Below are positions 22,174 to 64,000 of a DNA stretch of 64,000 nucleotides, one piece after another. The translations under genes and the position numbers were made by a program. Within the stretch, counting starts at the first letter, position 1, and each line of letters starts with the position of its first letter. The DNA lies in sequence record NZ_CP118990.1; one strand, 5' to 3'. The stretch is from a plasmid. The notes under the pieces were generated by a model, which was not told the DNA's origin, did no database searches, and saw nothing but the letters and a program-made list of their open reading frames with translations.

Positions 22174-22205
22174 ACGAACTCCTCCGATAAGAGTGTGTGT
22201 AGGCC

Positions 22206-22237: not shown

Positions 22238-22425
22238 TCACATTACAGCACCATAAAGTGGTGTCGGTCAAATCAAAATATGACCTAGTAAAGATTGGTG
22301 TATGTCGGCCATCAACAACTTGACGGGAGAGGTGAGTGATTTAATATGAGCTCATTATTTGAGTTAGTAAAAGGTAGGGCGAATCATGCGTACTTACGTG
22401 ATCGTGCCCGTGCGCAGTCGGGCAA

Positions 22426-22445
22426 AAATTTCACATGTGAAATAA
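22426..22445. promoter_or_regulatory. Operator-like site AAATTTCACATGTGAAATAA, family member 7
   Basis: ~65 bp upstream of ORF 22511. Confidence 0.5.
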
Positions 22446-22510
22446 AAGAATGAACCGGTAGTACAAAGCGTGAGACTACAGACCTACACGGTAGCGAGGA
22501 AAAACAGATA

Positions 22511-26231: not shown

Positions 26232-26234
26232 TAC

Positions 26235-28268: not shown

Positions 28269-28291
28269 GCTTGAATCCTTGTCAAAATTGT

Positions 28292-30979
28292 CTAGAGGGT
28301 AGCAGCGGTGAGCTTTTCATAGATTCCGAGTAGATGGCTTACCCGATCCGCTGCATCCTTAAATGGGCGATCCCGATAGAGCTTATCGACAGCACTATCC
28401 AGTGCCTGATGTGCCTCAAGCAGTCCAGCAGGCATGTTGTCGGGGTCATAGAGTTCGGCCAGCGTCTTGCCAGGGTAATCCTCTCGTGCCAACTCAACCT
28501 CCTCAGCCAATCGCTCAATTTCTTTGCGCTGATTCGTCGTAACAGTGGGCCAAGGGAAGGTGTTGTAAACGACCTTATTTCCATAGCTGTACCGGCTTTC
28601 TAGCCTCATTGCCACTAGTCGCATCCAGTCGTTGTGGAGTAATGAGGAGAGGATACCGAATTCATACAGAGTACCATTTGGAAGAATGAAGTTTCGGTCA
28701 GAGCAAATGACATCCGAACTAAAGAATCCCATAGGGACATAGGTTCTACGCTCAGATGAAACACGGGGTACCAGAATATAATCGCCGGAAGTCGGCTGGC
28801 TTACCTGCATAAAAACATGTGGCTTTTCGGCCATCTTAAGTGCTGCTGGGTGACCAGCTTTGATACGAAGTTGCCGAATAATAGATGTTCTTTTCATGAC
28901 CTCAGGCATAGCCAGTAGCTCATCCTCTGAGGCATCTACCAGCCATAAACACCAACGTTCCTTGGCATTTATAAACTCTTCCGCCCCTAATATTTTTTTT
29001 ATCCAGCGTTCTGCCTGAGGTTCGCGTCTCAGTAGTTCGTCTCGCTCATCTCGGGTCAACAGTAAATGACCACCATCTGTTGGTTTATTACCAAATAGCA
29101 ATGGTGGTATGTCGCTTATCAATGGTTTGTTTCGTGCGACGACGGCGATATTACTGCCTTCTACCAGATAGGGACTGATATTTGAAACTGTGCGGCTATG
29201 CCATTCACCATCTACTTGTTGAAATAGCTGCTTGTGTTTTGAACGGGAAGATAGTCCTACAATTACAACATGAACTCCTGCTTTATCACGTGCATTATTG
29301 GCCCATGGAAAACTGGGATAAGCGAGATGAATATGTAAATCTAACGCAAAAATTCTGGGCCAGAGCGTAGCAACTTGTTCACCTTGGCAGATGGAATTGG
29401 TAGATACCAGTGCCAGCTCAGCCCGGGAACCTTGTATATACTGTGCCCCCTTCCAAAACCAACAGGCGACAAAATCCAGATATCCCAGCGCTTTATCATT
29501 GTTAAAAACGGCCTGCATATTCGCGCGCTGTTCATCTGAACGACCCAATGTACCCAAGAAGGGTGGATTCCCGATCACATAGACATCATCCTCAATCCCT
29601 TTGGGGCAGACCTTATGCCAATCTAAAACCAGACTATCACCGCTCACGATATTGCCGGATGATCTCAGTGGTAGCGCGGGGGGGGCATAGCCGAAAGTCT
29701 GCTCCCACTGCTTGTTGAGTTGATGTTCGGCCAACCAGAGTGCAAGGCGGGCGATCTCACAGGCAAAATCGTCAATCTCGATACCGTAAAACTGATCGAG
29801 GTGCAGGCTGCTCATGGAGAAGCCCTGCTGCGGTTCAAGCTGTTGCAAGGCTTGAATGGCCAGTCGCTCCAAGGTATGCAACTCCTTGTAGGCGACGATC
29901 AGGAAATTGCCCGAGCCACAGGCGGGATCGAAGACTTTGATGTTACCTAGGCGCATCAGCAGTTTTTTGAGGCCATTGGCACTCTTTCGATTTTTTTCCA
30001 ACTCGGCCCGCAGTGAATCCAGAAATAGCGGTTGGATCACCTTCATGATGTTGCTGTACGAGGTGTAGTGCTGGCCCAAATTGCCGCGCTGCTCGACATC
30101 GATCACCGCTTGGAACATCGAACCGAAGATATCCGGGTTGATGTCCCCCCAGTTCATCATGCAGCACTCCAGCAGGATCTTGCGGCCCTGCTTGCCAAGC
30201 GCCGGGATGGGCTCATCCACCGCGAATAGCCCGCCGTTTACATAGGGGAAGGCCGCCAGATGGGACGGCAGGGTTTTGCGTAACTCGCTATTGGGTTCGC
30301 TGTTCATGACGGCGAACAAGTCACTGAGGAACTGATCGAGGTCGCTGCCGTCCTCCTCGGTGTAGCCTTTAATGGCAGAGGTGAACTGACCCTGATTAAA
30401 GATCCCCGTATCTTCGGCGAACAGGCAGAACAGCAGCCGGGTCAGGAATACGTTGAGGGCATGAATATCCTCAGGTCTACTCAATTCATTGAGGCTCTTG
30501 ATGAGATCGAAGAGCTTGCCCATCTTCTCGGCAGCCTTCACATCGGCAGGGTTCTCGGCACCCAGAATCGCCTTCTCAAGGCCTGCTAAGGGTAGGAAGA
30601 AACCATATTCGCGGAACAGTTCGCCGAGCTCAGTATCGAGTCTCTCCTCAGTCAGAACGTCCCACGCGAGGAAGCGAACAAAATCGGTGAGGATGACGAA
30701 GCGGTATTTGTGCTTGGTGCTGGCACATTCTGCAATCCGCTGTTCAAAAAGGAGCTCGATATCGGCGCCTTCATCCACCGGCTGAAAGTAGAACTTTGAG
30801 TTGATGCCAACGTGGCCCGATTCTTTGGCAAGGTTGCGACTCCCCCCTTGCCTGATATGCGTGATCGTGGCCTTGGGCAGTCCATAGGCGGCCATAAAGG
30901 CAAAGATAAATTCGGATTGGTCAGGTGCGCTGACCAGCGCTTTCAAGTCATCGGAGATTTTGGTCTGATTGACGGCCAT
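28292..30979 (-). CDS. MmeI-family (Type IIG/IIL-like) N6-adenine DNA methyltransferase with C-terminal TRD; N-terminal nuclease D-x9-ExK motif not detectable
   Basis: Long colinear similarity to MmeI: LLFCLFAEDT, AAFPYVNGGLF, FDPACGSGNFL (motif I), GNPPF (motif IV), NTFPWP; N-terminal region lacks the EMK catalytic triad. Confidence 0.75.
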   Translation of the reverse strand: MAVNQTKISDDLKALVSAPDQSEFIFAFMAAYGLPKATITHIRQGGSRNLAKESGHVGINSKFYFQPVDEGADIELLFEQRIAECASTKHKYRFVILTDFVRFLAWDVLTEERLDTELGELFREYGFFLPLAGLEKAILGAENPADVKAAEKMGKLFDLIKSLNELSRPEDIHALNVFLTRLLFCLFAEDTGIFNQGQFTSAIKGYTEEDGSDLDQFLSDLFAVMNSEPNSELRKTLPSHLAAFPYVNGGLFAVDEPIPALGKQGRKILLECCMMNWGDINPDIFGSMFQAVIDVEQRGNLGQHYTSYSNIMKVIQPLFLDSLRAELEKNRKSANGLKKLLMRLGNIKVFDPACGSGNFLIVAYKELHTLERLAIQALQQLEPQQGFSMSSLHLDQFYGIEIDDFACEIARLALWLAEHQLNKQWEQTFGYAPPALPLRSSGNIVSGDSLVLDWHKVCPKGIEDDVYVIGNPPFLGTLGRSDEQRANMQAVFNNDKALGYLDFVACWFWKGAQYIQGSRAELALVSTNSICQGEQVATLWPRIFALDLHIHLAYPSFPWANNARDKAGVHVVIVGLSSRSKHKQLFQQVDGEWHSRTVSNISPYLVEGSNIAVVARNKPLISDIPPLLFGNKPTDGGHLLLTRDERDELLRREPQAERWIKKILGAEEFINAKERWCLWLVDASEDELLAMPEVMKRTSIIRQLRIKAGHPAALKMAEKPHVFMQVSQPTSGDYILVPRVSSERRTYVPMGFFSSDVICSDRNFILPNGTLYEFGILSSLLHNDWMRLVAMRLESRYSYGNKVVYNTFPWPTVTTNQRKEIERLAEEVELAREDYPGKTLAELYDPDNMPAGLLEAHQALDSAVDKLYRDRPFKDAADRVSHLLGIYEKLTAATL

Positions 30980-34935: not shown

Positions 34936-35097
34936 CGCGTAATTCCTTCCTTACCATCATGGATGTCCCATTCTACTGGGGGAGGAAGTGGAACCTCGTT
35001 TCTCAAACTGCCCAAATTGGACAGTTACGCAGGTGTGAGAGGAGAAATAGTTTTGAGAGCATGTAACGACGTAAAACGATGAACATGGTCAAGTTAC

Positions 35098-44260: not shown

Positions 44261-44343
44261 TTTGTCGCTGTAACTGCCCGAATTGGGCGCAAAGCCGTAG
44301 TAGGAAAGCGGGTCAACTGAATGAAAATACAGGCAATGAAGAT

Positions 44344-47480: not shown

Positions 47481-48043
47481 GCATTGTGACCAAAATGGGC
47501 AGTTTCACAGACGAGATTCGACTAGGGCTGAGAGTAGGATCTCTCAGACTGTTGGGGGTCGGTGCTGCAATCATGCTGCTCGCGGGGTGTTCATCACTCA
47601 ATATCGGGGAGGAGGAATACAGCTGTCCAGGTATGCCAAACGGTGTGCAGTGTATGTCTGCTCGGGATGTTTACGCCGCAACCAACGATGGGAATGTCCC
47701 TCGTCCGATGAAGGAAGATGAGGCCAAAGCGAAGGGGGAGGGCCAAGCCACCCCCTCGGCCGGAGCCACGAGCACATCTGGAGACCCGGTAATTGACACG
47801 TATGTCGCTCCGCGTTTGCCGGATCGCCCAATTCCCATTCGCACACCAGCGCAGGTGATGCGGATCTGGGTAGCTCCCTGGGAGGACACCAACGGTGACC
47901 TCATCGTAACGGGGTATGTCTACACGGAGATTGAACCGCGCAGATGGGTGATCGGGGATGGTACACCCGAAAACGAGCCGGTGTTGAGACCGCTGCAATC
48001 CGTGCAGCACGAACCGAAAACGGAAACAACCACAACAAAGTAG
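47477..48043 (+). CDS. traV: F-type T4SS lipoprotein TraV
   Basis: Lipobox LAGC, conserved Cys pair. Confidence 0.65.
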   Translation: MSIVTKMGSFTDEIRLGLRVGSLRLLGVGAAIMLLAGCSSLNIGEEEYSCPGMPNGVQCMSARDVYAATNDGNVPRPMKEDEAKAKGEGQATPSAGATSTSGDPVIDTYVAPRLPDRPIPIRTPAQVMRIWVAPWEDTNGDLIVTGYVYTEIEPRRWVIGDGTPENEPVLRPLQSVQHEPKTETTTTK

Positions 48044-48055
48044 GAGATGTTCTGA

Positions 48056-48460
48056 ATGAACATGAATGTAAGTCATACAGGTCCGGTGGCGAATGCCTCC
48101 GCGGTAAACAAAAACAACGCGCTCTTCCTCCTGATGGGACTGGTGGCGGTGGCTCTCGTGCTGGCGCCGGATTCCGTCCACGCAGGCACTGGCGGGACTG
48201 CGTTTGATGATGTCTGGACCACCCTCAAAGACTGGACGCAGGGTACCCTCGGTCGAATCGTTGCTGGTGCCATGATCCTGGTTGGTGTTGTCGGTGGAAT
48301 CGCTCGCCAGAGCCTGATGGCATTCGCCATGGGTATCGGTGGTGGGATGGGGCTGTACAACTCCCCGACAGTGGTTGAGTCGATCATGTCTGCAACACTG
48401 GAACATGCCGACAAGATCGCCCCGGCCGCAATCCACCTCACCAATGGGCTTGGGGGCTAA
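48056..48460 (+). CDS. traA: Conjugative pilin TraA (propilin)
   Basis: Long leader then two hydrophobic helices typical of F-like pilin; terminator downstream. Confidence 0.6.
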   Translation: MNMNVSHTGPVANASAVNKNNALFLLMGLVAVALVLAPDSVHAGTGGTAFDDVWTTLKDWTQGTLGRIVAGAMILVGVVGGIARQSLMAFAMGIGGGMGLYNSPTVVESIMSATLEHADKIAPAAIHLTNGLGG

Positions 48461-48493
48461 GGCACCATCACTCGCCAGACACATGAAGGAATA

Positions 48494-48521
48494 GGGCAGC
48501 CAGTGGGCTGCCCTATTTTTT
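48494..48521 (+). terminator. Rho-independent terminator (gggcagccagtgggctgccc + T-run)
   Basis: Perfect 8-bp stem. Confidence 0.75.
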
Positions 48522-48641
48522 CATCAACAGCCAAATATTTTTCTCAATGTACTCAAAACGGACACAAACACAGCCGGTCTTTCAAAGGCGCGTCCCGTAA
48601 TCTCCATTTTGGGTTCGTGTAACCTTTAAATGGAGAGTGTG

Positions 48642-51600
48642 ATGTTAAAACACAAATTGAAATTACCAGCCTTGCTGGGAGCCCTGGGGGCTATTTTCAC
48701 GGGAACAGCCCAAGCAGAGTTGTTGCAGTATTCCTTTACTGCTCCGGGGGGGGCACAAAGGACGTTAGCGGCGACTGCCAACTATGCCAACCCGACGGGT
48801 AACATTCGATTCGCTTTGAGTGCAGGTATTGACCGTAAGGTCAAAATCTCGGTGCTGCGAACGGATGGTACCTTGGTCTCTACAGTAACCAGTCATCTGT
48901 TGGGGGCGGCCGACCGGATCACTGTAGGCGGCAGCACCTACTATGGTGCAGAGTTGCAACTAGCCGCACCGGTTGCGGGTACCTATAAGCTCAAAGCAGA
49001 GATTTTATCTGCGGCCGGGGCTTCGGTTCAGGCGGATGAGTATCCCCTGACTGTTGATGTCACCGCTCCGACATATGCGTCAGTGGCACCAGAAGCAAGT
49101 AATTATGGGCAAGTCACCACTGGTACCCTCTGGAAGCTGGGTATTGGAGGGGCCGAAGAGAACGCCTTCAAGCTCACCGGTATCAGCGATAGTACGCCGG
49201 TAACAAGCGTCAAAGCGAAGCTGTACAGGCAGGATGGTTCGTTATATCGAAATGTCGCTATTCCTTACGATGCAGCCAACCATGAGGCGCGAAAGCCGTT
49301 CGAAAGCGGATTTTTCCCTAACTCTGATCTGGATGAACAGTTCACTCTCCAGTTCGAAATCGCAGATAGTGCTGGAAACACAACGCTGACGGACGCGCAA
49401 AAAGTGATGTTTGATAACGTCACCAATGCCCCTACCGCACCATTTGGTGTCTTTGACCCCAACAGCTCAAATATCCTGGCGCCGGGGTTGACCGGGTTTG
49501 TGTCTTATACCGATGGTATGACGGTGAAAACAAACCCAATCAAACTGGCGTGGCGTGTGCCGCGTAATAACTGGCATGAATACCGGGAGGGCGGGATCAA
49601 TATGGTCAATGCCCTCGGTCAGATGACCAAGGCCGGTGAAGATAGTCAGTATGTCTACCTAATCACAACTTCCCCCTACGGGCACACTGATGGGAACTAC
49701 TGGCGCTGGGTCAACTTCGGGCAGTGGGGGGGGGGGGTTATTGATTACGATTTGGTCCTATCCCCCTCTGCCCCCAAAAGCCCCAGATTGCTGGGAGTAG
49801 ACTACAACTACAGCGACATCGGTTGGTCCACGATGCTGCGATATTACGTCATGAATAGCTCGCTGCCGCTCACAGTAAGTAGCATCAGGGTTAATGTAGA
49901 GGCAAGACCCTATGTGCAAACGGCTGTGCACCGGGGTAGCTGTAGTGTCCCTGCGGGACAAACGAGCTGTGTCATAGCCAACAGCTTTACCATGGCAAAG
50001 GGCACCACGGGGTACGTTCATGACAACGCAACGGTCTACAACGCGGACAGCACTTTGCAGTCCAATCCCTTGTGGGCAGAGGTGAACTGGAACGACCAGT
50101 ATTACCCCCAACTCACCCAGCAATATGACGCCAATACCAAGATCTTCACCTTGTTTATTGCCCAGCAAGGGCGTGGAAGTTACTTCGACCGCCTCCGGCT
50201 GAAAACGGCTTGGATTGAAGATAACAAAGGTAACAAGCTCTCCCCCCAAGGCGGGTTGACTGCCGACAACTGGGATAATTACACCTACCAATGGGATCTC
50301 AAGACCCTACCAGAAGGGCAGTTCAACTTGGTAGCAGTTGCGGAAGAAATGCACGGCCCGCAGACCAAGCAAACGATGTTCCAGATCACGTCGGATCGCA
50401 CAGCTCCGGTGATGACCATCAATACGGCCCAGGGTGCGAATATCCAGACGCTCGATGATGTGATCATCAACCTGAGTGATGCCCTTGACCCGTCGCCGAA
50501 GCTGACATCGATCGCGCTGGCTGGTGGGCCAGCCAACGACAAGGTGCAGTTATCTTGGCGTGAAGAGTCGAAAGGGCGTTTCCGCTTGGAATACCCAGTC
50601 ATGTTCCCCTCCTTGAAAGCCGGGGAGTCATACACCCTCACTGCCAAGGGGCAGGATGCCCAAGGTAACTCCGTTCAAAAAATCGTGGGGTTCCAGTACA
50701 CGCCGCGGCAGGTGACGCTGGCAGACGGCATGGATGGCAAGCTGATGATCCCGGCCGTGACGCAGGAGTTTACCCATGCCGACGGCAGCAAGATCATTGA
50801 AACGGTGCCGCTGACCCTCAACGACGGCTCCACTGTGACCGGCTCCTATGATGTGTTCGCCACGCTGCGCACTGACGCCAAGGTCCCGCTGGTGGTCAAC
50901 GGGGTGCGGATTGAACCGGGCCAGACCATGAGCATCCTGAGCAAACACAACTTCGGGGCCTCCGGTGGCCGCCTGAGTATCCCGGTAAAACCTGCGGTTG
51001 CGGATGTGATCGGGACCTCCGGCCTGCTGGTCACCACGGCGGCGCCGAACTCCCCGATCCTGGTGCTGGACGTGACCTCCTGGAAGCCGACGGCAAAACT
51101 CTCCGCGGAATCGTGGACGGTGCGCCAGGTGATTGACCCGGTGAAGATCTCCGCCCTGCCAGATGTCGGGGTGCCCTGCCGCTTCACTTCCAAAGAGGAA
51201 GAAGCGAAGCGCTCCGACCCGATCCGGGATCCGGTGTGTCTGTTGCAGTGGGACCGCATACCGGATGAGGCCGAGCAGAGCACTCAGGAAACTGACGGCC
51301 TGAAACTGGCGGGGCTGGTGGGCCAGGCGGTCAGCCTGGGTGAGCAGCCGCTCGAATACAGTCTCTATCTGTTCAGCGGTGACGGCGCCAAGGTGAAGGT
51401 CGGCGGCGGCAGCCGCAACCTGACGGTGACCAGTGCTTACGGTTCCGTGGGCTATACCCCCGGCCCCGAGGTGGCACAGGTGAACCGTATCATCGAGACC
51501 TTCGATGTGCGGATGAGCCAGAATCTGGGGCCCGTCTGCTCGGTGACCCTCAGTGCCGATCAGGCGAAGAAAGATGCGGCCAACAAGGCCTCGGGCAGTA

Positions 51601-54128
51601 TCAGTCGTAGTTGCCTGTTTGAATGGCAGGCGATCCCGGATGGGCTGGTGCAGGATCAAGGCACCACTACCCCAGGTCTGAGCGGGACAGTGACGGAGAA
51701 AATGCAGCACGCGCTGGGCTGGCGGGTGAGCATCTACAGCAAGAACGGCACCCGTGTGACCCTCAATGATCAGACCTTTGCCATCGATGCCATAGATCCC
51801 CCGGCTCCAACTGTGGATTTGACCTCGAAGTACAAATTCCGGGACAACATCTACATGGTGCCGATGCTGGGCGACTACCTGGGGGATGCGACCATCACCT
51901 CGGAGCGGGCAGACCTGGACGTGGCGATCATGCGCAACACCGATACCCTGGAGTCGGAGACATTCTCCCCCGGCTGGGGTTCAAACACCAAAGTCTACCG
52001 TCGGCTGAACACCGACCAGCGGGGTTTGTGGGAAGAGACCACTTACAAGGTGAAGGCGGCCTACAACAAGGTGCCAGAGGTGAAGACCGAAGCGGTGTAC
52101 AAAGCCGTGTCGGTGCCGTCTTACAACTTGGTGCCGGTGGTGGAGGTAGCCGGTGACACGGCCATCGACACCCAGGCGCTGCCAGTGCAGGTGAAGATCC
52201 AGGATCAATACAAACCGACCGAGGCGTTTGACGAGGCCACGATGGGGACCTGGAAGGTGCGGTTGATCCGGCAGATGGCGTACAACAAGACCGAGGCGCT
52301 GACGGATTTTGTGAATGCGACGAACGGTACAGCGAGCTTTGCGGTAGATCTGTCGAAAGTGGACACGAGCTCGGTGCGGATCGTGGCGGAAGCGGAGCTG
52401 GTGTCGCCATTTGAGGGGTACAGCCGGGTAGTGCAGTCCACGCGGCCTGCGTTCTTGACGGTGCTGCGAGGCGGTGCGATTGGCGCGGAGGTTGGTGCCC
52501 GTCGGCTGTCGGGCGAGGCGCCGTTCACGGCGGTGTTCAAGCTGGCGCTAAGTGACCGCCAGGACTACCGGGCGACCGGCGACGTGGTGTGGGATGTCAG
52601 CAGTGACGGCGGGGCGACCTGGGAGAGCACGACACCGGAGGAACGCTACAAGTACCAGATGGTGAAGGTGTTCGAGAAAGGCTCCTACAAGGTGCGAGCC
52701 AAGGTGATCAACCGCAACTCCAGCGCCGAGGCTTACACCGAAGTGGTGGACGTGATTGCCTACGACAAGCCGAAGCTGGAGGTGAAGGGGCCGCAGACGC
52801 TGTTTGTGGGCAGCGAGGGGACATTCTCGACCCGGCTGACCGTGAAGGACGAGGAGATTGGTGCTGAGAACGCGGTGGTGGAGTGGTCAACCGATGGCGG
52901 CAAGGTGTGGGACAAGCAGGGCCCGACGCTCACGCTGAACAGCGACAAAGACACCCGGATCAAGCTGTGGGCACGGGTGCGCTCCGGGGATGCCCCCGCG
53001 AGCGACGAGTACGCCTACCGGGTTGCCAAGACCGCCGTTGAGTTCCGGGTGGTCAAGCCACCGCGGCCGTATGTGTCGGGGCCGTCGGTGATCGAGACAG
53101 GCAAGACCTACACCTTCAAGGCCACGACCAGCTTGCCGTACAAGGGGATGGACGTGCAGGTGAAGGGGGTCTTCGTCCTGCCGAATGGGCAGCGGGTTGA
53201 AGGTGACACGGCGCAGTACACGCCGAGCGCTGAGGACCTGACCAAAGAGCGGGTGGAGACCACCTACACGGCCTGGATAGAGGGTTTCCGGGAGCAGGGA
53301 GCCGAGGCTACGCACTCGATGTACTCCCGTGTGTGGGAGTACGTGTGGCCGCGGTTCGGGATGCAGGTACGCAAGACGGCGAACGTGGCCCCCGCCACGA
53401 TCATTGTGACGGCACGGCCGATCGGCTTCTCGGGCAAGCTGGAAGAGGCTGTTTATGAGTGGACGTTGCCGGAAGGGGCGGCCATTGAAGATCAGAAGCA
53501 ACCGGCAGCGCGGGTGTTCACGATGGGCAGCGCGGGGGAATACCTGGTGAAGCTCAAAGTGCGGGATGCGCGAGGCAACGAGACGGCGCTGGAGGAGCCG
53601 GTGAAGCTGGGCGAGGCCGAACAGTACGTGATCGACCTGCAATACTCGGGCTCGAACCCGGATGCGCGTGAGCCGCTGGATGTGCTGCTTCGGCCGTACA
53701 TCTCGGGTGGTCATCCGCGGGATCGGATCCTGACCCGCCAGTATTCGGTGGATGGGAAACCGCTGGAGAGTGCGGGTTTCTATGGCCGCACGACGTTGCA
53801 GGCTGGTGAGCACGAGATCAAGCTCAAGGCGACGTCGGAGATGGGCAAGGATGTCGAGGGCAAGCTGGTGCTCAAGGTGGCAGAGAACAAACTGCCGACG
53901 TGCACAGTGCGCAGCCGGGAGACGATCGGTTCGTGGATCGTGTACGCAGAGTGTGAGGACCCGGATGGTCGGATGAAGTCGTATCAGTGGACGGTAGGAG
54001 GAGAGGTGCAGGCCATCACCGCGGACCGTCTGACGATCAGCAAGGGCAAGAGCGGTGTGATGCCGCCGATAACGCTGGTCGGGGTGGATGACTCCGGTGG
54101 TAAGTCGGAGTCAGTATCCCTGAACTGA
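48642..54128 (+). CDS. Very large secreted repeat protein with Ig-like/PKD-like domains (putative adhesin)
   Basis: Signal peptide MLKHKLKLPALLGALGAIFTGTAQA; C-terminal PKD-like segments (VKLKVRDARGNE..); 1,829 aa. Confidence 0.65.
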   Translation: MLKHKLKLPALLGALGAIFTGTAQAELLQYSFTAPGGAQRTLAATANYANPTGNIRFALSAGIDRKVKISVLRTDGTLVSTVTSHLLGAADRITVGGSTYYGAELQLAAPVAGTYKLKAEILSAAGASVQADEYPLTVDVTAPTYASVAPEASNYGQVTTGTLWKLGIGGAEENAFKLTGISDSTPVTSVKAKLYRQDGSLYRNVAIPYDAANHEARKPFESGFFPNSDLDEQFTLQFEIADSAGNTTLTDAQKVMFDNVTNAPTAPFGVFDPNSSNILAPGLTGFVSYTDGMTVKTNPIKLAWRVPRNNWHEYREGGINMVNALGQMTKAGEDSQYVYLITTSPYGHTDGNYWRWVNFGQWGGGVIDYDLVLSPSAPKSPRLLGVDYNYSDIGWSTMLRYYVMNSSLPLTVSSIRVNVEARPYVQTAVHRGSCSVPAGQTSCVIANSFTMAKGTTGYVHDNATVYNADSTLQSNPLWAEVNWNDQYYPQLTQQYDANTKIFTLFIAQQGRGSYFDRLRLKTAWIEDNKGNKLSPQGGLTADNWDNYTYQWDLKTLPEGQFNLVAVAEEMHGPQTKQTMFQITSDRTAPVMTINTAQGANIQTLDDVIINLSDALDPSPKLTSIALAGGPANDKVQLSWREESKGRFRLEYPVMFPSLKAGESYTLTAKGQDAQGNSVQKIVGFQYTPRQVTLADGMDGKLMIPAVTQEFTHADGSKIIETVPLTLNDGSTVTGSYDVFATLRTDAKVPLVVNGVRIEPGQTMSILSKHNFGASGGRLSIPVKPAVADVIGTSGLLVTTAAPNSPILVLDVTSWKPTAKLSAESWTVRQVIDPVKISALPDVGVPCRFTSKEEEAKRSDPIRDPVCLLQWDRIPDEAEQSTQETDGLKLAGLVGQAVSLGEQPLEYSLYLFSGDGAKVKVGGGSRNLTVTSAYGSVGYTPGPEVAQVNRIIETFDVRMSQNLGPVCSVTLSADQAKKDAANKASGSISRSCLFEWQAIPDGLVQDQGTTTPGLSGTVTEKMQHALGWRVSIYSKNGTRVTLNDQTFAIDAIDPPAPTVDLTSKYKFRDNIYMVPMLGDYLGDATITSERADLDVAIMRNTDTLESETFSPGWGSNTKVYRRLNTDQRGLWEETTYKVKAAYNKVPEVKTEAVYKAVSVPSYNLVPVVEVAGDTAIDTQALPVQVKIQDQYKPTEAFDEATMGTWKVRLIRQMAYNKTEALTDFVNATNGTASFAVDLSKVDTSSVRIVAEAELVSPFEGYSRVVQSTRPAFLTVLRGGAIGAEVGARRLSGEAPFTAVFKLALSDRQDYRATGDVVWDVSSDGGATWESTTPEERYKYQMVKVFEKGSYKVRAKVINRNSSAEAYTEVVDVIAYDKPKLEVKGPQTLFVGSEGTFSTRLTVKDEEIGAENAVVEWSTDGGKVWDKQGPTLTLNSDKDTRIKLWARVRSGDAPASDEYAYRVAKTAVEFRVVKPPRPYVSGPSVIETGKTYTFKATTSLPYKGMDVQVKGVFVLPNGQRVEGDTAQYTPSAEDLTKERVETTYTAWIEGFREQGAEATHSMYSRVWEYVWPRFGMQVRKTANVAPATIIVTARPIGFSGKLEEAVYEWTLPEGAAIEDQKQPAARVFTMGSAGEYLVKLKVRDARGNETALEEPVKLGEAEQYVIDLQYSGSNPDAREPLDVLLRPYISGGHPRDRILTRQYSVDGKPLESAGFYGRTTLQAGEHEIKLKATSEMGKDVEGKLVLKVAENKLPTCTVRSRETIGSWIVYAECEDPDGRMKSYQWTVGGEVQAITADRLTISKGKSGVMPPITLVGVDDSGGKSESVSLN

Positions 54129-54148
54129 TTGGCTGACTTCTCTACTTC

Positions 54149-54175
54149 AAAGCCCGGTATTACCGGGCTTTTTCT
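54149..54175 (+). terminator. Rho-independent terminator (aagcccggtattaccgggcttttt)
   Basis: Hairpin + T-run after giant ORF. Confidence 0.75.
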
Positions 54176-54282
54176 ATTTATTTCAGATGTGCCCCAAAAG
54201 GGCACAAACACAGTCGCGATCATTCAGTTGGGTCCCGTAATCTGCATTTTGGGTTCGTGTAACCCCTGAATGGAGACGTGAC

Positions 54283-54918
54283 ATGATTAACCACAAACTG
54301 AAATTTCCTGCTCTGTTGGGTGCGATGGCTGTTCTATTCGCTGGCACATCCCATGCGGAGCTACTCCAGTATTCGTTTACTACACCAGGAGGCGCTCAAA
54401 GGTCTTTGTCTCCCGAAGCCATCTACGCCAACCCCAGTGGAAACATAAAGTTTGCCCTTAGCGGTGGGATTGACAGAAAGGTCAGGCTCTCTGTTCTGCG
54501 GACGGATAACACAGTGGTCTCAACCAGCACAAGCAAATTACTTGGCGCAACAGACCGTATAACTGTTAACGGTAAATCCTATTATGGCGCGGAGCTCCAG
54601 CTGCCAGCCCCTCCAGAGGGGGAGTATCAGTTGAAAGCCGAATTGCTGACGTCTAAAGGGGGGTCAGTGCAAGCGGATTTATTCCGTTTTGCCGTTGATG
54701 TAACCCCGGCAACACTTGGGAATTTCTCTTGGGGAATGAATTACGGTCGGGGTTCGGCCCCCGACGGTAAACCAATATTTGCGACAGTTGATGCAAAGCA
54801 CATAACGCTGGATCAAGTGAATGATGCCTTATCTGGTATTGGGGATATTACTTACGAAACCTACTGGATCGGCAGGGCGAGATCACGAACGTTTTTTAAG
54901 CAGAACATGAGGATTTGA
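54283..54918 (+). pseudogene. Truncated paralog of the giant adhesin N-terminus (first ~200 aa), cut by ISAs1-family insertion
   Basis: ~60-70% aa identity to residues 1-200 of ORF 48642; upstream leader 54191-54283 also similar to 48541-48640; ORF runs into IS terminus. Confidence 0.55.
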
Positions 54919-56135
54919 CCGACCGATCTGGGTGTGATCTTATACTCTCTTTTACGGGAGTTTCGTCATGAACCATCAAGCGGCATTTACCCAATTCTTC
55001 TTCGATCTTGAAGACCCTCGTCAAGCAACCAAAATCGCGTATCCCTTCTTCGATGTGGTCTTTCTGACCGTCTGTGCTGCCATCGGTGGGGCTCACGGTT
55101 GGGAAGATATCGAGCTTTTCGGCGAGGCGCATCTGGAATGGCTTCAGCGTAATGGATTGTTTCTTAAAGGATTACCTGTTCACGACACCATAGCCAGGAT
55201 CATCTCCCGTATTCAGCCGGAGCAATTCCAAAACGCCTTTGTCCGTTGGATGCAGGCCACGTCAGAGCGTACCGACGGTGAGCTGATCGCCATTGACGGC
55301 AAGACCTTACGCAGCTCTTACGACCGCGACAGTCGTCAGTCTACCATTCATATGGTCAGTGCCTTTGCCGCTGAGAATCGTCTGGTGCTCGGTCAAGTCA
55401 AAACGGATGCCAAGTCCAACGAAATTACCGCCATTCCGGAATTACTGGCACTCCTCGATATAAAAGGTTGCCTGGTATCCATAGATGCCATGGGCTGCCA
55501 GACCGAGATAGCTTCAACCATAGTCAAGGGTGGCGGTGACTACCTGTTGGCGGTAAAAGGTAACCAACCCACACTGCATCATGCAGTACGCGCGGCTCTG
55601 GTCGAGTCGACGAAGAAGCCTTTGAGCGAAGAAACGTTCAGTGTCGAGAAAGAGCACGGGCGCATCGATGGCCGCGAGTACCATGTGTTACCAGCCGGAG
55701 CACTGGCTGAGCAATTTCCAGAGTGGAAAGCACTGAAGAGTATTGGTGTAGCAATATCCTATCGGATTGAAAATATGGAAAAATTTTCGATGGAGTATCG
55801 CTACTACATCAGCTCGGCAGAACTGACACCAGAGCAGTTTTCCTCAGCAGTACGAGGGCACTGGGCGATTGAAAATAGCCTGCACTGGGTTCTGGATGTC
55901 GTGATGAATGAGGATGCTTGCCAGATATATAGAGGTGATGCTCCTCAGATATTGGCCTGCGCACGGCACATGGCGCAGAACATGCTGCGAGCGGAAACCA
56001 GCCGTAAGGCAAGTTTGCGGAAGAAGCAGCAATTTGCGGGCATGTGCAGTACCTATCTGGAAAAGGTACTGGATGCTGGGCTGGCTAAATTGAATCAAAT
56101 TTAACAATTTGTTCACGCTCTCGCCCTGGTATAGC
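54919..56135 (+). mobile_element. ISAs1-family insertion sequence (boundaries approximate)
   Basis: Contains full-length ISAs1-family transposase; left end shares gtgatcttat...cggga motif with second copy at ~62900. Confidence 0.65.
54968..56104 (+). CDS. ISAs1-family (H-repeat-associated) transposase
   Basis: 378 aa; strong similarity between the two copies in this window and to ISAs1/H-rpt transposases (AIDGKTLR, SIDAMGCQ, LLAVKGNQ). Confidence 0.85.
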   Translation: MNHQAAFTQFFFDLEDPRQATKIAYPFFDVVFLTVCAAIGGAHGWEDIELFGEAHLEWLQRNGLFLKGLPVHDTIARIISRIQPEQFQNAFVRWMQATSERTDGELIAIDGKTLRSSYDRDSRQSTIHMVSAFAAENRLVLGQVKTDAKSNEITAIPELLALLDIKGCLVSIDAMGCQTEIASTIVKGGGDYLLAVKGNQPTLHHAVRAALVESTKKPLSEETFSVEKEHGRIDGREYHVLPAGALAEQFPEWKALKSIGVAISYRIENMEKFSMEYRYYISSAELTPEQFSSAVRGHWAIENSLHWVLDVVMNEDACQIYRGDAPQILACARHMAQNMLRAETSRKASLRKKQQFAGMCSTYLEKVLDAGLAKLNQI

Positions 56136-57318: not shown

Positions 57319-57885
57319 TTGTCGTGGGAGAGTATGTTGAAAACAAATCGGTGTGCATTGATTTTTATTATGTTAATGGTTGCAGGTTGCAGCCATTTAA
57401 ATGATGAACAAAAGAGTATAAAGCAACAGAACATTAATGACATGGCACGCAACACTATTACGCAGTTGCTCGAGCGGGATGAAAGACTCACTAAAGCATT
57501 CGATGAATCGTTAGCTTATATGGTTGTCGACATGAAAGTAACAAAAATTCCTGCTATTGGAGTAGGTGGCGGCGAGGGGGTGCTTTTCATGAAAGCAGAA
57601 AATAAACCCACTTTTTATCGTGTTCAGCGTTTTGATCTGGGCGCTGGTTGGGGGGCTCGTTCCTATAAGGCTTTAGTTTTAGTGTCGTCACAAAACATCA
57701 TGGAAAAATTAAAAGAGGGTCTCTGGGTATTTGATATCGGAGGAGAGGCTTCCGCTGGCACTGCGGCTATGGCAGGTACATCGAGTGACATTATTCCTGA
57801 GTACTCTGTACACATCTTATCCTTAACCATCCCCTCATATGAGCGAGGCGTGGCGCGGCTTCTGAGGTATGATCGCCATCCTTGA
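57319..57885 (+). CDS. Hypothetical lipoprotein (Gly-rich, possible SYLF-like domain)
   Basis: Lipobox VAGC; AT-rich. Confidence 0.4.
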   Translation: MSWESMLKTNRCALIFIMLMVAGCSHLNDEQKSIKQQNINDMARNTITQLLERDERLTKAFDESLAYMVVDMKVTKIPAIGVGGGEGVLFMKAENKPTFYRVQRFDLGAGWGARSYKALVLVSSQNIMEKLKEGLWVFDIGGEASAGTAAMAGTSSDIIPEYSVHILSLTIPSYERGVARLLRYDRHP

Positions 57886-59100
57886 CCAGCTAATACCCAA
57901 CAGACTATCCCCATGTTTAACCACGAACTAATCCTCAACCACATCGACGATATATTTGGACAGGACATGCATGCCAAGCGTGTTCTTTCCCTCGCCAATG
58001 CTACCCTCGGGGTTATCGAGTCAGGTTCACTGGCCATCCACGCCATCGGTAGTGGCCTCTCCTTGGCCAACGGTCTCGAACGTAAACATGCGGTTAAACA
58101 GGTGGATCGCCTGCTCACTAACACCAAGCTCAATGTCTGGAGCCTCTTTGACGATTGGGTGCCCTATGTGGTCGGTGAACGTACCGAGATCGTAGTCTCC
58201 ATGGACTGGACCGAATTCGATGCCGATGATCACAGTACCTTGGTTATCAGCCTGCAAACCAACCACGGTCGCAGTACTCCGCTGCTGTGGAAAACCCATC
58301 GGAAATCGTTGCTCAAAGGGCAACGCAATGCCCATGAGAAAGAGCTGCTCACCAAGCTCAAGCAGACGTTGCCAGAGGGTATCTTCGTGACGGTAGTCGC
58401 TGACCGCGGCTTTGGTTACATGGAGCTGTTCGAACGCCTGGAGCAAGAGCTAGGCTTTGCTTATCTCATTAGATTTAAAGGAAATGTTTTGGTTGGTTAC
58501 CCTGGTGTAGAGCAGGTTCCAGCTCGGGACTGGCTAACGCCGACCGGGCGCACCCGAACCCTCAAAGCGGTGGAGCTAACTGGGCAGCGACAGCCTGTCG
58601 AACGGGTCTATTGTTGTCATAAGAGTGGCATGAAAGACGCGTGGTTTCTGGCCAGTAACCGGACCGACCTGAGCGCCGCCAAGGCGTTGCAACTATACGG
58701 CCAGCGCTGGGGTATCGAGACCAGTTTTCGTGATATCAAAGATTACAAATTCGGCATGGGTATGGGAGATGTGCACATCAGTAATCCGGTCCGGCGCGAC
58801 CGACTGTTTTTATTCAGTGCCCTGGCCATCGTCTTGCTGACGCTGCTGGGTAAGGCTGGAGACAGTGTCGGTCTAGAGAGAACGATCAAGGTCAATACCA
58901 GCAAGAGCCGAACCTATTCGTTCTTTCGGCAAGGGGTCATCTATTACCAGTTGCTACCTAAAATGAAAGAAGCCAATGCGGTCTTGTTGATGGATAAATT
59001 TATCTACTACCTGAAGCAACACCGCTTATATACCCGCACACTTGGAATTATTTGAGTCTCTAAAAATGAGGGGATCTCTGAGCATCTTATCTGATGGTGG
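57880..59100 (+). mobile_element. IS4-family insertion sequence (IS10-like transposase; boundaries approximate)
   Basis: Encodes 380-aa IS4-family DDE transposase. Confidence 0.6.
57913..59055 (+). CDS. IS4-family DDE transposase (IS10/IS231-like)
   Basis: DWTEF, ADRGF, YGQRWGIETSFRDIKD motifs align with the IS10 transposase catalytic region. Confidence 0.8.
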   Translation: MFNHELILNHIDDIFGQDMHAKRVLSLANATLGVIESGSLAIHAIGSGLSLANGLERKHAVKQVDRLLTNTKLNVWSLFDDWVPYVVGERTEIVVSMDWTEFDADDHSTLVISLQTNHGRSTPLLWKTHRKSLLKGQRNAHEKELLTKLKQTLPEGIFVTVVADRGFGYMELFERLEQELGFAYLIRFKGNVLVGYPGVEQVPARDWLTPTGRTRTLKAVELTGQRQPVERVYCCHKSGMKDAWFLASNRTDLSAAKALQLYGQRWGIETSFRDIKDYKFGMGMGDVHISNPVRRDRLFLFSALAIVLLTLLGKAGDSVGLERTIKVNTSKSRTYSFFRQGVIYYQLLPKMKEANAVLLMDKFIYYLKQHRLYTRTLGII

Positions 59101-59539: not shown

Positions 59540-60960
59540 AGTAAACAGAAAGCCCGGCACTGCTGCCGCAATGCTGTTCACTTAAGCGGAGCCGCATTGC
59601 GATCTACCGGAAAACGGGTCTTTGATATCTTCACCGCCCTGGGTCTCGATGGCCTGGGGCGTTTTTCTATGAACATGACGCCTATGCAGCCCCGCAACTC
59701 CGCCAACCTCCGTGGCGTATGGGCTGGCGATAACGCGCCCGCCATCACTGCCATCTGGTTCGCGATGAACTGACAGGCAAACTTAAAGCTCACCTCATTG
59801 GGCGCTCGCTGATGGGCTACGGCGGCCTGGCTGGCCTCCCGCCTGACCAGATTGTATCCAAGCAGCAATCCCCACAGCTCCTGATAGACCAAGTCCACTT
59901 TCTTGCTTCTCAGCGTGATGGCGTTGTGCTGCATCGCGCTTTTGATATCCCGGTATCCCAGCTCGATTTCCCAGCGCTCGTGGTACAGGGTCGCCACCTG
60001 AGCTGCGCTGAATCGCGCCACGGGCAGGGAGGTAAAGACCGTTTTCTCCTTGCCTGCCACCTCATAGGTCACTGCGCGAACTTGCCAGTGTGTCGGCAAC
60101 GCCGGGTTTTTCTTGCGAGCCTGAGGCGAGACCGTCATTTGCAACAGACGGTCACCGTCGCCATAGCGCTCAAGTTCCGTGTATACCAGCCCCTTGCGTT
60201 CCGGGATGAGCCAGTGACGGTCGGTGTCTTCGGCCTGAATACGCAGCAACAGGTCGGCACCGAAGAAGCCTTTATCCAGCAGGGTCACTGACTTGTCCGG
60301 CAATGAGTGAATGAACTCGCTGGCCAGGGGGATTTCCCCTTTGCGGTACGGGCTGATGGCCGCGTTGGCAATGACATGCGAGCGGACATTCATGAGCGTG
60401 ACCAACCGCAGCATCGGGTAGGGTGTCTGCCGGTTGGTTGAGGTGTTACCCGAGCCGAAATGTGCTCTGAGTTCAGGCATATCCTGGGTCCGGAACAGGG
60501 CCCCATCGATGGCAAAGACCTGTAAACCGTGCCACTGGTCTTGAGGATAACGTTCCCGCCCCCACACATCGGCGCACTGCTTGAACAGCCACTCGAGCGG
60601 CTGTTTGCCGAGTCGCTGACGGGCCTGAGACAGGGCACTGTCCGCGAGCAAGGCATCATTGGCCAACCCTTCTGCACAGATGTTGAGGCGCCGAGCGACC
60701 TCGGAGATGGGCTCATTGCGGAAAAAGGCCATCCCCACGACGAGCCACAAGACCATATCAGAAGGTAAGCGGCGTCGGCGGATAGTGGCCTTTTCAGACA
60801 AGGCGGCAGCGGCAGTAATCCATTCGTCGGGAATATGGTCGGCAAAAATGGCCAGCCGAGCCAGCATGTCGCCAGATGCCTCAACAACATCGTTCAGATC
60901 GTTTGCAATAGACATAAAAAATCCGGAACCAGTGATTGGTTCCGGATTGTCCTACAGCAG
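59540..60960 (-). mobile_element. IS4 (IS4 group) insertion sequence (boundaries approximate)
   Basis: Transposase closely resembles E. coli IS4 transposase. Confidence 0.65.
59578..60915 (-). CDS. IS4 transposase
   Basis: Colinear similarity to IS4 Tnp: RRRLP..MV.W.VVGMA, AIDG..FRT.D, SPQARKK, YHERWEIELGYRDIKS, LRSKK. Confidence 0.85.
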   Translation of the reverse strand: MSIANDLNDVVEASGDMLARLAIFADHIPDEWITAAAALSEKATIRRRRLPSDMVLWLVVGMAFFRNEPISEVARRLNICAEGLANDALLADSALSQARQRLGKQPLEWLFKQCADVWGRERYPQDQWHGLQVFAIDGALFRTQDMPELRAHFGSGNTSTNRQTPYPMLRLVTLMNVRSHVIANAAISPYRKGEIPLASEFIHSLPDKSVTLLDKGFFGADLLLRIQAEDTDRHWLIPERKGLVYTELERYGDGDRLLQMTVSPQARKKNPALPTHWQVRAVTYEVAGKEKTVFTSLPVARFSAAQVATLYHERWEIELGYRDIKSAMQHNAITLRSKKVDLVYQELWGLLLGYNLVRREASQAAVAHQRAPNEVSFKFACQFIANQMAVMAGALSPAHTPRRLAELRGCIGVMFIEKRPRPSRPRAVKISKTRFPVDRNAAPLK

Positions 60961-61042
60961 AAGGATCGGTCAATGGATCCTTAACTGATCAGCATTGGGC
61001 ACTGCTGCCGGGCTTTTGTTCGCCTGGGTGTTATCTCCAGGC

Positions 61043-62778: not shown

Positions 62779-63647
62779 AGATTACGAAACCCCGCGATTT
62801 TAAAGGGCTGCGAAAGAGGTCGTTTTTCGAGATGACGTTTGTTGAGGCTTAAGTAAATCTTTTTTGTGCATTTTTTCTTGCTAAATAAGGATCGCTTTGA
62901 CGATCTTGCCAGATCGTGATCTTATCCTGTTTTTTATCGGGATAGTATCACAGTGACAGGACTCAGCCTTTTGGACCACATAAGCCTCATTAAAGACCCA
63001 CGCCAATCATGGAAGATCAGTCACAAACTGGCCGATATTATCTTTTTGACAGTAACGGCACTCATTGCCGGTGCCGAGGGTTGGGAAGAGATTGAAGATT
63101 TTGGGACCGATCACTTAACCTGGCTTCGTCAATATGGCGACTTTGAAAACGGGATCCCAAGCCACGATACGATAGCGCGGCTAATGGGATTGTTATCAGG
63201 CCAGCAGTTGCAACGTTTCTTTGTGCAGTGGATGCAAACCTGCCATGAAATGAGTGATGGGACGCTGGTCGCGATCGATGGCAAGACGCTTCGTGGCACA
63301 GCAGATAAGCGCATTAAAAACAGTGCGATCCATATGGTGAGTGCCTTCTGTGCGGCCAATCGCGTGGTGCTTGGACAAGTAAAAACAGAGGCCAAATCGA
63401 ATGAGATCACAGCGATACCAGAATTACTTAACCTATTGGAATTGAAGGGTTGCCTGGTCAGTATCGATGCCATGGGGTGCCAACGGAAAATAGCGAAACA
63501 GATAGTGGAAAAGGGCGCTGACTATCTGCTGGCGGTGAAAGGTAATCAGGGTAAGTTAGAGCAGGCTTTTGATGCATGGTACAGCCCGCAGATGTTCAAA
63601 AGTGGGATGGAAGAGAGTGATGGTCACTATGCCACGCAGGAGTCAGG
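62779..63647 (+). mobile_element. Truncated ISAs1-family element (3' ~1/3 deleted) inserted in hisP/artP-like gene
   Basis: Transposase ORF lacks C-terminal ~140 aa relative to copy 1; host gene resumes in frame at FNLWSH. Confidence 0.6.
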
Positions 63648-63650
63648 TCA
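62953..63650 (+). pseudogene. ISAs1-family transposase, C-terminally truncated
   Basis: ~75% identity to residues 1-215 of transposase 54968-56104, then reads into ABC gene. Confidence 0.75.
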
Positions 63651-64000
63651 TAGAGCTTCAACCTCTGGTCGCACATGACCATCATGCAGAACATCATCGA
63701 GGTGCCCATCCAGGTGCTCAAGGTACCCCGTGCCGAGGCCATCGCCAAGGCGGAGCAGTTGCTCAACCGGGTGGGGCTGTGGGAGCGGCGCGACTACTAC
63801 CCCGGTCACCTCTCCGGCGGCCAGCAGCAGCGGGCGGCCATCGCCCGCGCGCTGGCGGTGGATCCCGAGGTGATGCTGTTCGATGAACCCACCTCGGCGC
63901 TCGATCCCGAACTGGTGGGGGAGGTGCTCGGCCTGATGCGCGAGCTGGCCGAGGAGGGGCGCACCATGCTGGTGGTCACCCACGAGATGTCGTTTGCCCG
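63648..64000 (+). pseudogene. C-terminal part of HisP/ArtP-like ABC ATPase (runs off window end)
   Basis: [21 protein letters not shown]..., signature LSGGQQQR, Walker [12 protein letters not shown]. Confidence 0.75.

Follow-up and report, generated by a model that had tools for sequence, protein, structure and literature searches.

The DNA examined here is a stretch of 64,000 nucleotides from a plasmid (sequence record NZ_CP118990.1), referred to below as the window, and the analysis is concerned with a giant gene found in it (gene 1) and with the truncated second gene copy (copy 2) that follows. An earlier sequence-only reading had described this locus as a mosaic giant adhesin gene with a truncated tandem paralog. 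Of the transfer genes of a pAsa4-type Aeromonas plasmid, the first block was recognized at 34.3 to 54.1 kb of the window; it comprises the mobH relaxase gene, traD, a DUF4400 gene, traL, traE, traK, traB, traV and traA. Its DNA identity is 99.5% to A. salmonicida pAsmA, and 97-99% to pAsa4b, to pAsa4c and to A. caviae plasmids. These are untyped IncA/C-like plasmids, which have tra synteny and AcaCD-type regulation in common with IncC (PMC11493245). The last gene of the traLEKBVA block is the traA pilin gene (48056-48460; match to NF041281 TraA_gammapb, E = 6e-35), which adjoins the giant gene upstream in all relatives, as seen from the synteny with pAsmA, pAsa4c and IncC. For the giant gene itself, the program-made open reading frame (ORF) spans 48630-54128 and has 1832 codons when counted from an upstream ATG; however, the real start is probably the ATG at 48642, since a GGAG (48632-48635) precedes it and every close relative is annotated from there, which makes gene 1 a gene of 1828 amino acids at 48642-54128. 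Copy 2 (54283-54872) lies downstream, and an insertion sequence (IS) of the ISAs1 family (54873-56128) follows it directly. All of these features, from traA to the IS, and the modules and promoter elements described below, are on the + strand.

Pfam annotation of gene 1 revealed four domains, namely DUF4165, Big_3_2, Big_3_3 and PKD, with E-values from 1e-57 to 1e-11, while no NCBIfam model matches the protein. A Sec-type signal peptide could be read from the sequence at residues 1-25, ending in AQA before ELLQY. At the DNA level, gene 1 is 95.7-99.2% identical to an 'Ig-like domain-containing protein' gene (Ig, immunoglobulin) in eight pAsa4-family plasmids, and 88.3% identical to its counterpart in the A. 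hydrophila plasmid NZ_CP013966. In IncC, the corresponding gene is vcrx076, known as orf1832 in type 1 and as orf1847 in type 2, and used as a marker that separates the two IncC lineages (PMC6872532, PMC7652850). Four hallmarks of this IncA/C-like Big protein are present in gene 1, i.e., the position next to traA, the domain architecture, the size of ~1830-1850 amino acids, and homology over the full length. Gene 1 also resembles IncC orf1832 (variable region R1) in its length (in both, 1832 codons from the upstream ATG and 1828 as annotated), domain order, head type and homologous leader, but differs from it in its pAsa4-type lineage, a stalk with a much higher GC content at third codon positions (GC3; 0.81 vs ~0.57), a degenerate promoter box, and the presence of a second paralog as the next gene instead of dsbC. 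The sequence-only reading had placed the locus where traC, traF, traH and traG normally follow traA. This did not survive the comparison, since the same gene lies between traA and dsbC-traC in nine close relatives and in IncC plasmids, and is followed by dsbC-traC-...-traN in pAsmA, pAsa4c, IncC pTMSNI47-1 and pKAZ5. Judged by these sequence comparisons, gene 1 is thus the pAsa4-family ortholog of IncC vcrx076/orf1832, coding for a secreted giant Ig-like (Big) conjugation-accessory protein, and belongs to the plasmid backbone rather than being an intruder. The family is known and partly characterized, and near-identical copies of the gene are already public.

The same reading had reported a sharp change in composition near 50.5 kb, from ~48% to ~62% GC. 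The change is indeed real, and the second part has ~62% GC with high GC3, but the first part has ~53% GC rather than 48% (0.534 over 48642-50591 vs 0.622 over 50592-54128), and the break sits at ~50.68 kb, ~180 nt further on. GC3 rises from 0.612 to 0.807 across the break while the GC content at second codon positions (GC2) is flat (0.457 vs 0.455), and the shift in composition therefore lies at synonymous sites. A two-segment maximum-likelihood scan put the GC3 change point at codon 680 (nt 50682), with a log-likelihood ratio of 42, where the highest value reached in 200 permutations was 9. The long antisense ORFs that had been noted in the GC3-rich part are present as well (50628-51710 and 52887-53813), and neither has a Pfam match. 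It is to be noted that the head, i.e., the part before the break, has a GC3 similar to that of the plasmid backbone (0.61, compared with 0.58-0.67 in the backbone tra genes), and it is the stalk beyond the break that is the outlier (0.81); copy 2 has a GC3 of 0.49. In gene 2 of A. veronii pHX3 (NZ_CP040718), a plasmid described below, the contrast is even steeper (head 0.345, stalk 0.736), while in IncC type 1 the shift is merely weak.

The break coincides with a border between modules of the protein. The conserved N-terminal module (48642-49061) consists of the signal peptide and DUF4165 (PF13752, E = 2.8e-48), and is 54-90% identical across head types. It is followed by a hypervariable head cassette (49062-50711; residues ~141-690), in which Big_3_2, a 290-amino-acid region without Pfam match and Big_3_3 succeed each other; the head of gene 1 is of the orf1832-like type, here called type A. 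The conserved stalk then extends over 50712-54125 (residues 691-1828, GC3 ~0.81), with the PKD domain encoded at 53385-53588. The junction of head and stalk can be narrowed to 50682-50718, i.e., from the GC3 change point to the window equivalent of the last differing head-proximal codon in the two pHX3 paralogs, the two positions being just 36 nt apart. The composition break also falls at the border of the known replacement between orf1832-type and orf1847-type genes in IncC, and the GC3 jump at 50.68 kb is thus the boundary between head and stalk cassettes. Across the family, head types are 26-35% identical in amino acid sequence whereas stalks are 70-100% identical. The same borders are seen in the IncC proteins of pTMSNI47-1 (orf1832-type), pKAZ3 (orf1847-type) and pKAZ5, which are 97-100% identical in the stalk and 84-90% in the N-terminal module, but 27-35% in the head. 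Such identity patterns already contradict congruent phylogenies of head and stalk. Four head types were found among the five full-length proteins compared. Type A is shared by gene 1, pHX3 gene 1 and IncC type 1, and ~560 records of the plasmid database PLSDB match it at 60-80% identity, while the heads of pKAZ5 and of pHX3 gene 2 are each unique in PLSDB at >=99% identity. The Big_3_2...Big_3_3 layout is nevertheless kept in all heads, and they are therefore old allelic lineages rather than unrelated inserts. Between gene 1 and IncC type 1 pTMSNI47-1, amino acid identity is 70% in the N-terminal module with DUF4165, 77.6% in the head and 69.6% in the stalk, the type-A head being better conserved between Aeromonas and IncC than the stalk. 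The chimeric origin proposed by the sequence-only reading thus holds insofar as the protein is modular, with a cassette that can be exchanged and a composition break at the cassette border, but gene 1 is not an intruder. It is less evident that the type-A gene of the window arose recently as a chimera; either import of an Aeromonas-adapted stalk or GC-biased conversion between repeated stalks may account for its high stalk GC3. The orf1832/orf1847 typing polymorphism is, by the same token, one case of a general head-cassette system with fixed boundaries.

Copy 2 was analyzed in the light of this modular organization. The leader and the 5' coding region of gene 1 recur at ~54186-54872 with a mean column identity of 76% over the aligned stretch, in agreement with the duplication of the leader and the first ~200 codons claimed earlier, except that strong similarity continues only through approximately codon 145. 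Amino acid identity between the two copies is 68, 74 and 55% in successive 50-residue blocks up to that point, and then falls to 12%. The 196 codons of copy 2 (54283-54872) encode a signal peptide, DUF4165 (E = 8e-47; the module is 59-73% identical to other family members) and the first ~55 residues of a head, after which the ORF enters the IS and stops at 54918. These head residues (141-196) are 58.9% identical to pKAZ5, 15.9% to gene 1, and 16-27% to all other types. Copy 2 is therefore not a local duplicate of gene 1, as it had been taken to be, but a diverged paralog that carries a new, pKAZ5-like head sub-type.

An intact counterpart of such an arrangement was found in pHX3, where two open full-length frames of 1832 and 1819 codons stand in tandem between traA and dsbC. 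In the encoded proteins, the ~1100 C-terminal residues are 100% identical, against 8-30% identity over alignment columns ~150-650; in the nucleotide alignment the divergent region ends at window-equivalent 50718, and only two codon columns differ afterwards. The window is colinear with pHX3 over 48000-54630 at 86% identity, through gene 1, its intrinsic terminator (54149-54176 in the window; a 10-bp stem, AAAGCCCGGT/ACCGGGCTTT, and then a T run, the hairpin being kept after pHX3 gene 1), the promoter box, the leader and the start of gene 2, from which it follows that copy 2 is the remnant of a second complete, separately promoted paralog. Thus, the pHX3 pair is like the window in the succession of traA, gene 1 with a type-A head, terminator, AcaCD-type box and a gene 2 with another head, and unlike it in that both genes are full-length and dsbC follows; moreover, the head of pHX3 gene 2 is just 16% identical to that of copy 2 over residues 141-196. 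The PLSDB table lists a 3.4-kb 'hypothetical protein' at pHX3 9234-12617 (locus coordinates), where the intact 1819-codon frame exists, and in effect no public annotation of the tandem pair is available. In the literature searched, no description was found of the tandem two-head arrangement, of the pKAZ5-like sub-type or of the link to split head and stalk genes that is taken up below; the new sub-type, the tandem arrangement and this link are modest additions to what was known of the family. A single scan of genome contigs with copy 2 returned only loci of 49% identity, in Marinobacterium. There, two loci on a single 413-kb contig of Marinobacterium aestuariivivens (NZ_JBHSWE010000002) encode DUF4165 proteins 49% identical to copy 2, and the family therefore extends past Aeromonas, Vibrio and Enterobacterales.

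The repeated leader was compared over the 140 nt upstream of six genes, i.e., genes 1 and 2 of the window, genes 1 and 2 of pHX3, and the genes of IncC pTMSNI47-1 and pKAZ5. In all six, an AcaCD-type box, a -10-like element CCCGTAAYCT, the motif TTGGGTTCNTGTAAC, and the Shine-Dalgarno region GAATGGAGA are conserved. A position weight matrix (PWM) was built from the seven AcaCD boxes printed in Carraro 2014, and the whole 64-kb window was scanned with it. The box of copy 2 (54186-54213, GATGTGCCCCAAAAGGGCACAAACACAG) is near-consensus and was the fourth best match in the window, at 23.5 bits; it has 2 mismatches to the consensus TGCCCAAAAAGGGCANNNNCAG, with 0.08 matches expected by chance. The box of gene 1 (48546-48573, AATGTACTCAAAACGGACACAAACACAG) is degenerate; it aligns with the IncC box and scored 14.7 bits, which is marginal against a mean shuffle maximum of ~13.6, and a search with TGCCCAAAAAGGGCANNNNCAG at <=3 mismatches missed it, so that it was found only by the PWM. 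Both boxes are equally far from their own ATG. The best matches in the window were a divergent pair upstream of the relaxase gene traI (35000-35032), the traB/traV junction (47483-47510), and a site upstream of traL (44266-44298), and they mirror the AcaCD site map of pVCR94. A further strong AcaCD-type box was seen at 12892-12924, upstream of an ORF at 12979-13452.

Downstream of each box lies a 33-nt promoter and 5' untranslated region (5'UTR) block, at 48592-48624 for gene 1 (GTCCCGTAATCTCCATTTTGGGTTCGTGTAACC, with the -10-like TAATCT inside) and at 54232-54264 for copy 2, where GGAG (54272-54275) and the ATG (54283) follow. The two blocks differ at one base, and their core is kept in pHX3, IncC and pKAZ5. 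From the 36-38 nt spacing between motif and transcription start site (TSS) in pVCR94, the TSS of gene 1 is predicted at ~48609-48612. No sigma-70 consensus promoter was found in either leader of the window, which fits an activator-dependent promoter, and a strong terminator at 54149-54171 stands between gene 1 and the second leader. Indeed, in pVCR94 an AcaCD motif mapped by ChIP-exo and a TSS mapped by rapid amplification of 5' cDNA ends (5'RACE) lie directly upstream of the monocistronic vcrx076, the expression of which goes from 3 to 2495 upon AcaCD induction (Carraro 2014, Table S3). Considering that box, 5'UTR and Shine-Dalgarno region are conserved family-wide, the repeated leader is the family promoter and 5'UTR, one per gene, and by analogy with pVCR94 both leaders of the window may be activated in an AcaCD-dependent manner. 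With its near-consensus box kept, the copy-2 stub could still give rise to a secreted DUF4165 fragment of 211 amino acids. Two smaller observations were made on the leaders. The motif TTGGGTTCNTGTAAC (48609-48624 and 54249-54264) lies at the predicted 5' end of the transcript and is kept in the IncC and pKAZ5 leaders despite backbones that are ~74% identical. A pairing resembling an RNA thermometer, between TCTCCATTT (48601-48609) and AAATGGAGA (48628-36), was considered and dropped, as neither copy 2 nor IncC retains it and its 5' arm lies upstream of the predicted TSS.

The truncation of copy 2 by ISAs1, which had been recognized earlier, was corroborated. The element occupies 54873-56128, with a transposase gene at 54968-56104 (NF033564, E = 4.9e-127) and 18-nt imperfect terminal inverted repeats at 54873-54890 and 56111-56128. 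When its flanks were read, no target-site duplication was found, and the right flank is unrelated low-GC DNA; the truncation therefore came about through deletion or IS-IS recombination and not through simple insertion. It was also correct that the type IV secretion module is incomplete in the window. The genes dsbC-traN, which follow the giant gene in the relatives, were not found in it; when the pAsmA and pAsa4c regions were compared with the entire window by blastn, nothing past 54128 was matched apart from the paralog cross-match, and those large ORFs of window 1-34 kb that were covered by a Pfam scan had maintenance, repair or restriction functions or no match, and none was a tra gene. 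A second ISAs1-family copy, a transposase fragment at 62953-63678, could have been the rearrangement partner of the copy at 54873. Related events are on record in the same plasmid family, as ISAs1 lies inside the giant gene at ~codon 600 in both pAsa4 (7043-8250) and pAsa4b (5043-6250; locus coordinates in both cases), and in pAsa4 paired ISAS1 copies have inverted the traLEKBVA block, this plasmid being non-conjugative (PMC5088629). The real lesion of the window is thus the ISAs1-associated truncation, which parts traLEKBVA and the Big gene from dsbC-traN, as in the non-conjugative pAsa4.

Structure prediction was applied to residues 1-720 of gene 1. The AlphaFold (AF2) model, based on a 13-sequence alignment and with a mean predicted local distance difference test score (pLDDT) of 81.8, consists of a disordered signal peptide, with low pLDDT over residues 1-24, and then an all-beta chain of beta-sandwich (Ig-like) domains. 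When the head model was compared with the Protein Data Bank (PDB) by Foldseek, it matched generic multi-Ig proteins (complement MG domains, surface-layer proteins, SiiE) at template-modeling (TM) scores of 0.1-0.2; no enzyme or lectin fold and no specific mechanistic lead emerged, and a sequence search against solved structures gave no match below E = 0.047. The term 'adhesin' in the sequence-only reading was thus a fair structural guess, but what has been documented for the family is a role in conjugation (PMC8730810). The evidence comes from ALG87338.1 of pKAZ3, an orf1847-type protein of 1843 amino acids with the same three domains, i.e., DUF4165, Big_3_2 and Big_3_3, and a stalk 70.7% identical to that of gene 1. 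It was found in culture supernatant (Huttener 2022, PMC8730810), and its deletion strongly lowered liquid mating at 25 C but had no such effect at 37 C. Neither the flagellum nor motility was seen to be affected by the IncA/C homolog (PMC8730810). Huttener et al. relate ALG87338.1 to the RSP/RSP2 proteins of IncHI R27, which are reported to bind conjugative pili and flagella and to favor conjugation (PMC8730810). Like gene 1, RSP/RSP2 are large secreted Ig-like proteins from MOBH tra regions, although RSP is distant in sequence; tblastn with a 1128-residue stalk query against the annotated RSP gave ~24.7% identity over query residues 222-1119 (~80%), with E = 2e-57.

On top of these observations of homology, synteny, module boundaries, promoter motif conservation and IS truncation, a role in conjugation, following secretion, may be proposed for the gene 1 protein by analogy with its relatives. 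We regard it as highly probable that the locus belongs to the backbone of an Aeromonas conjugative plasmid of the pAsa4 type (IncA/C-like, MOBH/MPF_F), that gene 1 is a secreted Ig-like conjugation gene with head and stalk modules, and that copy 2 is an IS-truncated paralog with a second head. In the mechanism that we propose, gene 1 would be transcribed as a monocistronic unit between the traA terminator and its own terminator, from an activator-dependent promoter with the AcaCD-type box; with such a promoter, the protein would be expected to be made along with the mating apparatus. It would be built of three modules, namely the conserved signal peptide with DUF4165, a head of ~550 residues that comes in diverged, interchangeable types, and a stalk of ~1140 residues homologous to IncHI RSP. 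Once exported, it may bind the pilus or the cell surface and help mating pairs to form, chiefly in liquid and at low temperature. The stretch 54186-54872 would represent the promoter and 196 codons of a second paralog with the other head type, arranged as in the intact pHX3 pair, of which the ISAs1 copy, or recombination or deletion involving ISAs1, would have taken away the remainder together with the dsbC-traC...traN operon that follows at this position. The 'mosaic adhesin' would thus be a normal conjugation gene, and the result for the window is mostly a clarifying one. It nonetheless concerns a gene family that forms part of the backbone of IncC and related multidrug-resistance plasmids, and the biology of which has barely been explored.

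Several findings weigh against this reading. The only homolog with both secretion and conjugation data, that of pKAZ3, has a head just 32.8% identical to that of gene 1, and the 25 C liquid-mating phenotype would be carried over across this difference by inference. On the regulatory side, the score of the gene 1 box was marginal, as given above, and AcaCD orthologs were not found in the window by the Pfam scan of its large ORFs. A PLSDB search with the junction from stalk end to leader detected the tandem arrangement in pHX3 only. In addition, pAsa4b is reported to pass by conjugation into E. coli on agar at 18 C (PMC5088629) despite its IS-disrupted gene, and the giant protein is therefore accessory and not essential for surface mating. 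Lastly, the identity to pAsmA drops from ~99.9% to ~88% over 53880-54128, i.e., the last ~230-250 nt of gene 1. This drop at ~53880 is a recombination breakpoint inside the 3' end of the stalk, and it fits two histories, namely loss of gene 2 from the single-gene plasmids by stalk-stalk recombination, or gain of the distal segment here.

The second of these histories deserves to be set out fully. The segment from ~53.9 kb, which takes in ~230 nt at the end of gene 1, the intergenic region and copy 2, may have been imported by stalk recombination from a tandem-bearing IncA/C-like plasmid, the single-gene state of pAsmA being the original one. Such an import would account for the ~99.9% identity to pAsmA up to ~53880 and the ~12% divergence from there to the stop codon, for a copy-2 head that has no close relative in Aeromonas plasmids and finds its best match in the IncC-related pKAZ5, and for the GC3 of copy 2 (0.49), which is lower than that of the backbone (0.58-0.67). 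However, the same pattern would be left behind if pAsmA-like plasmids had lost gene 2 through recombination between the two stalks and had thereby retained the final ~230 nt of gene 2, and the near-identical 3.4-kb direct repeats that exist in pHX3 would delete readily; we consider the import a serious candidate, although the odds are against it. A different origin of copy 2, in which the 5' end of gene 1 was recently duplicated in situ and the duplicate was later hit by ISAs1, would be suggested by its adjacent position, same orientation, and shared leader and DUF4165. It hardly deserves credence, since the mean column identity is merely 76%, the sequence past codon ~145 is 16% identical to gene 1 vs 59% to the pKAZ5 head, and the intact layout of two genes with two heads exists in pHX3.

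The modular interpretation of the composition break and the assignment of the gene to conjugation also have competitors. Instead of marking a cassette boundary, the GC3 jump might reflect different mutational or conversion regimes, either GC-biased conversion among stalks or stronger amelioration in Aeromonas, in which case head and stalk would have descended together. It is in favor of this that head A and stalk show about the same divergence from IncC type 1 (77.6% and 69.6% identity), as common descent would predict, that the pHX3 stalk copies differ at only two codons, which suggests concerted evolution, that the shift is purely synonymous, and that IncC type 1 has only a weak one. Yet the GC3 contrast within pHX3 gene 2 (0.345 vs 0.736) and the IncC heads of 26-35% identity on stalks 97-100% identical require cassette exchange, and amelioration has not taken the other backbone tra genes as far as 0.8, which leaves common descent rather unlikely as the explanation. 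As for function, the size of gene 1, its multi-Ig architecture and its structural matches, including SiiE and surface-layer proteins, might point to a host-directed virulence adhesin of the type I secretion system (T1SS)/RTX or intimin-like kind, carried by the plasmid as a passenger unrelated to conjugation. But the protein has an N-terminal Sec signal; it has no RTX or T1SS match in Pfam, no RTX repeats and no beta-barrel anchor, and its neighbors are tra genes and IS elements, with no T1SS exporter or other T1SS genes among them. With RTX/T1SS signatures and a nearby exporter not found, it is not a classical T1SS giant adhesin. Its position in the tra region is, moreover, fixed across MOBH/MPF_F plasmids, and the IncC homolog is a member of the AcaCD regulon with a phenotype in conjugation, all of which makes a virulence adhesin very improbable, and the assignment to conjugation is preferred.

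If gene 1 is indeed a conjugation gene, the existence of exchangeable heads raises the matter of what they do. It is speculative, but conceivable, that the head sets the binding specificity and that stacked heads broaden the range. Arrangements relevant to this were found outside the pAsa4 family, where head and stalk are separate genes. In A. hydrophila GCA_015898245.1 (contig DACSNN010000036, 2865-14607), three tandem head-only genes of ~800 amino acids are followed by one stalk-like gene of 1398 amino acids; the third head gene is 40% identical to window residues 2-797, and the 1398-amino-acid gene is 24% identical over ~811-1822 (E = 1e-56). In K. pneumoniae pCPE16_2 (IncFIB/HI1B), tandem Ig-like genes of ~800 amino acids lie at 8998-13947 and a further copy at 20174-22612, one of the tandem genes being 31% identical to the window head. 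In many large Klebsiella plasmids, head searches matched 3-4 places in each record, and multi-copy head arrays seem to be common in MOBH/MPF_F plasmids. These split arrays are unlike the window in that head and stalk are separate genes, the ~800-amino-acid heads consisting of DUF4165, Big_3_2 and Big_3_3, and in that they are sited next to a DtrJ-like gene and not after traA. A tentative hypothesis, which we offer without much confidence, is that the head is a swappable specificity cassette of a conjugation adhesin, and that MOBH/MPF_F plasmids keep one to several heads, either as tandem paralogs with stalks homogenized by conversion or as head genes sharing a stalk gene; the window would then be a decayed two-head example with a previously unseen pKAZ5-like sub-type. 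The hypothesis draws on three points, namely the cassette system, the tandem heads behind their own AcaCD-type promoters, and the split head and stalk genes. If it is true, alternative heads would broaden or switch the range of mating partners or surfaces, in the manner of phage receptor-binding-protein cassettes or TraN specificity groups.

A few observations were made on the remainder of the window. Beyond the ISAs1 element lie a low-GC beta-barrel outer-membrane protein (OMP) gene, two IS4-family elements, a LysO-like gene and the ISAs1-type transposase fragment mentioned above. The segment 56146-57885 (GC ~45%), between the ISAs1 and ISAs18 copies, encodes a beta-barrel OMP-like protein of 335 amino acids and a 188-amino-acid ORF without Pfam match; elsewhere, the OMP-like protein was found only on two short metagenome-derived contigs, one from wastewater and one from a Logan run. 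The IS cluster consists of an ISAs18-like element at 57819-59082, an ISAeme15-like element at 59549-61016 and the transposase fragment at 62953-63678. On the - strand at 24939-30979, an MmeI-type restriction-modification enzyme (895 amino acids), a DEAD/ResIII helicase (677 amino acids) and a T5orf172/MUG113-domain protein (430 amino acids) are encoded side by side, in what looks like a plasmid-borne defense cluster.

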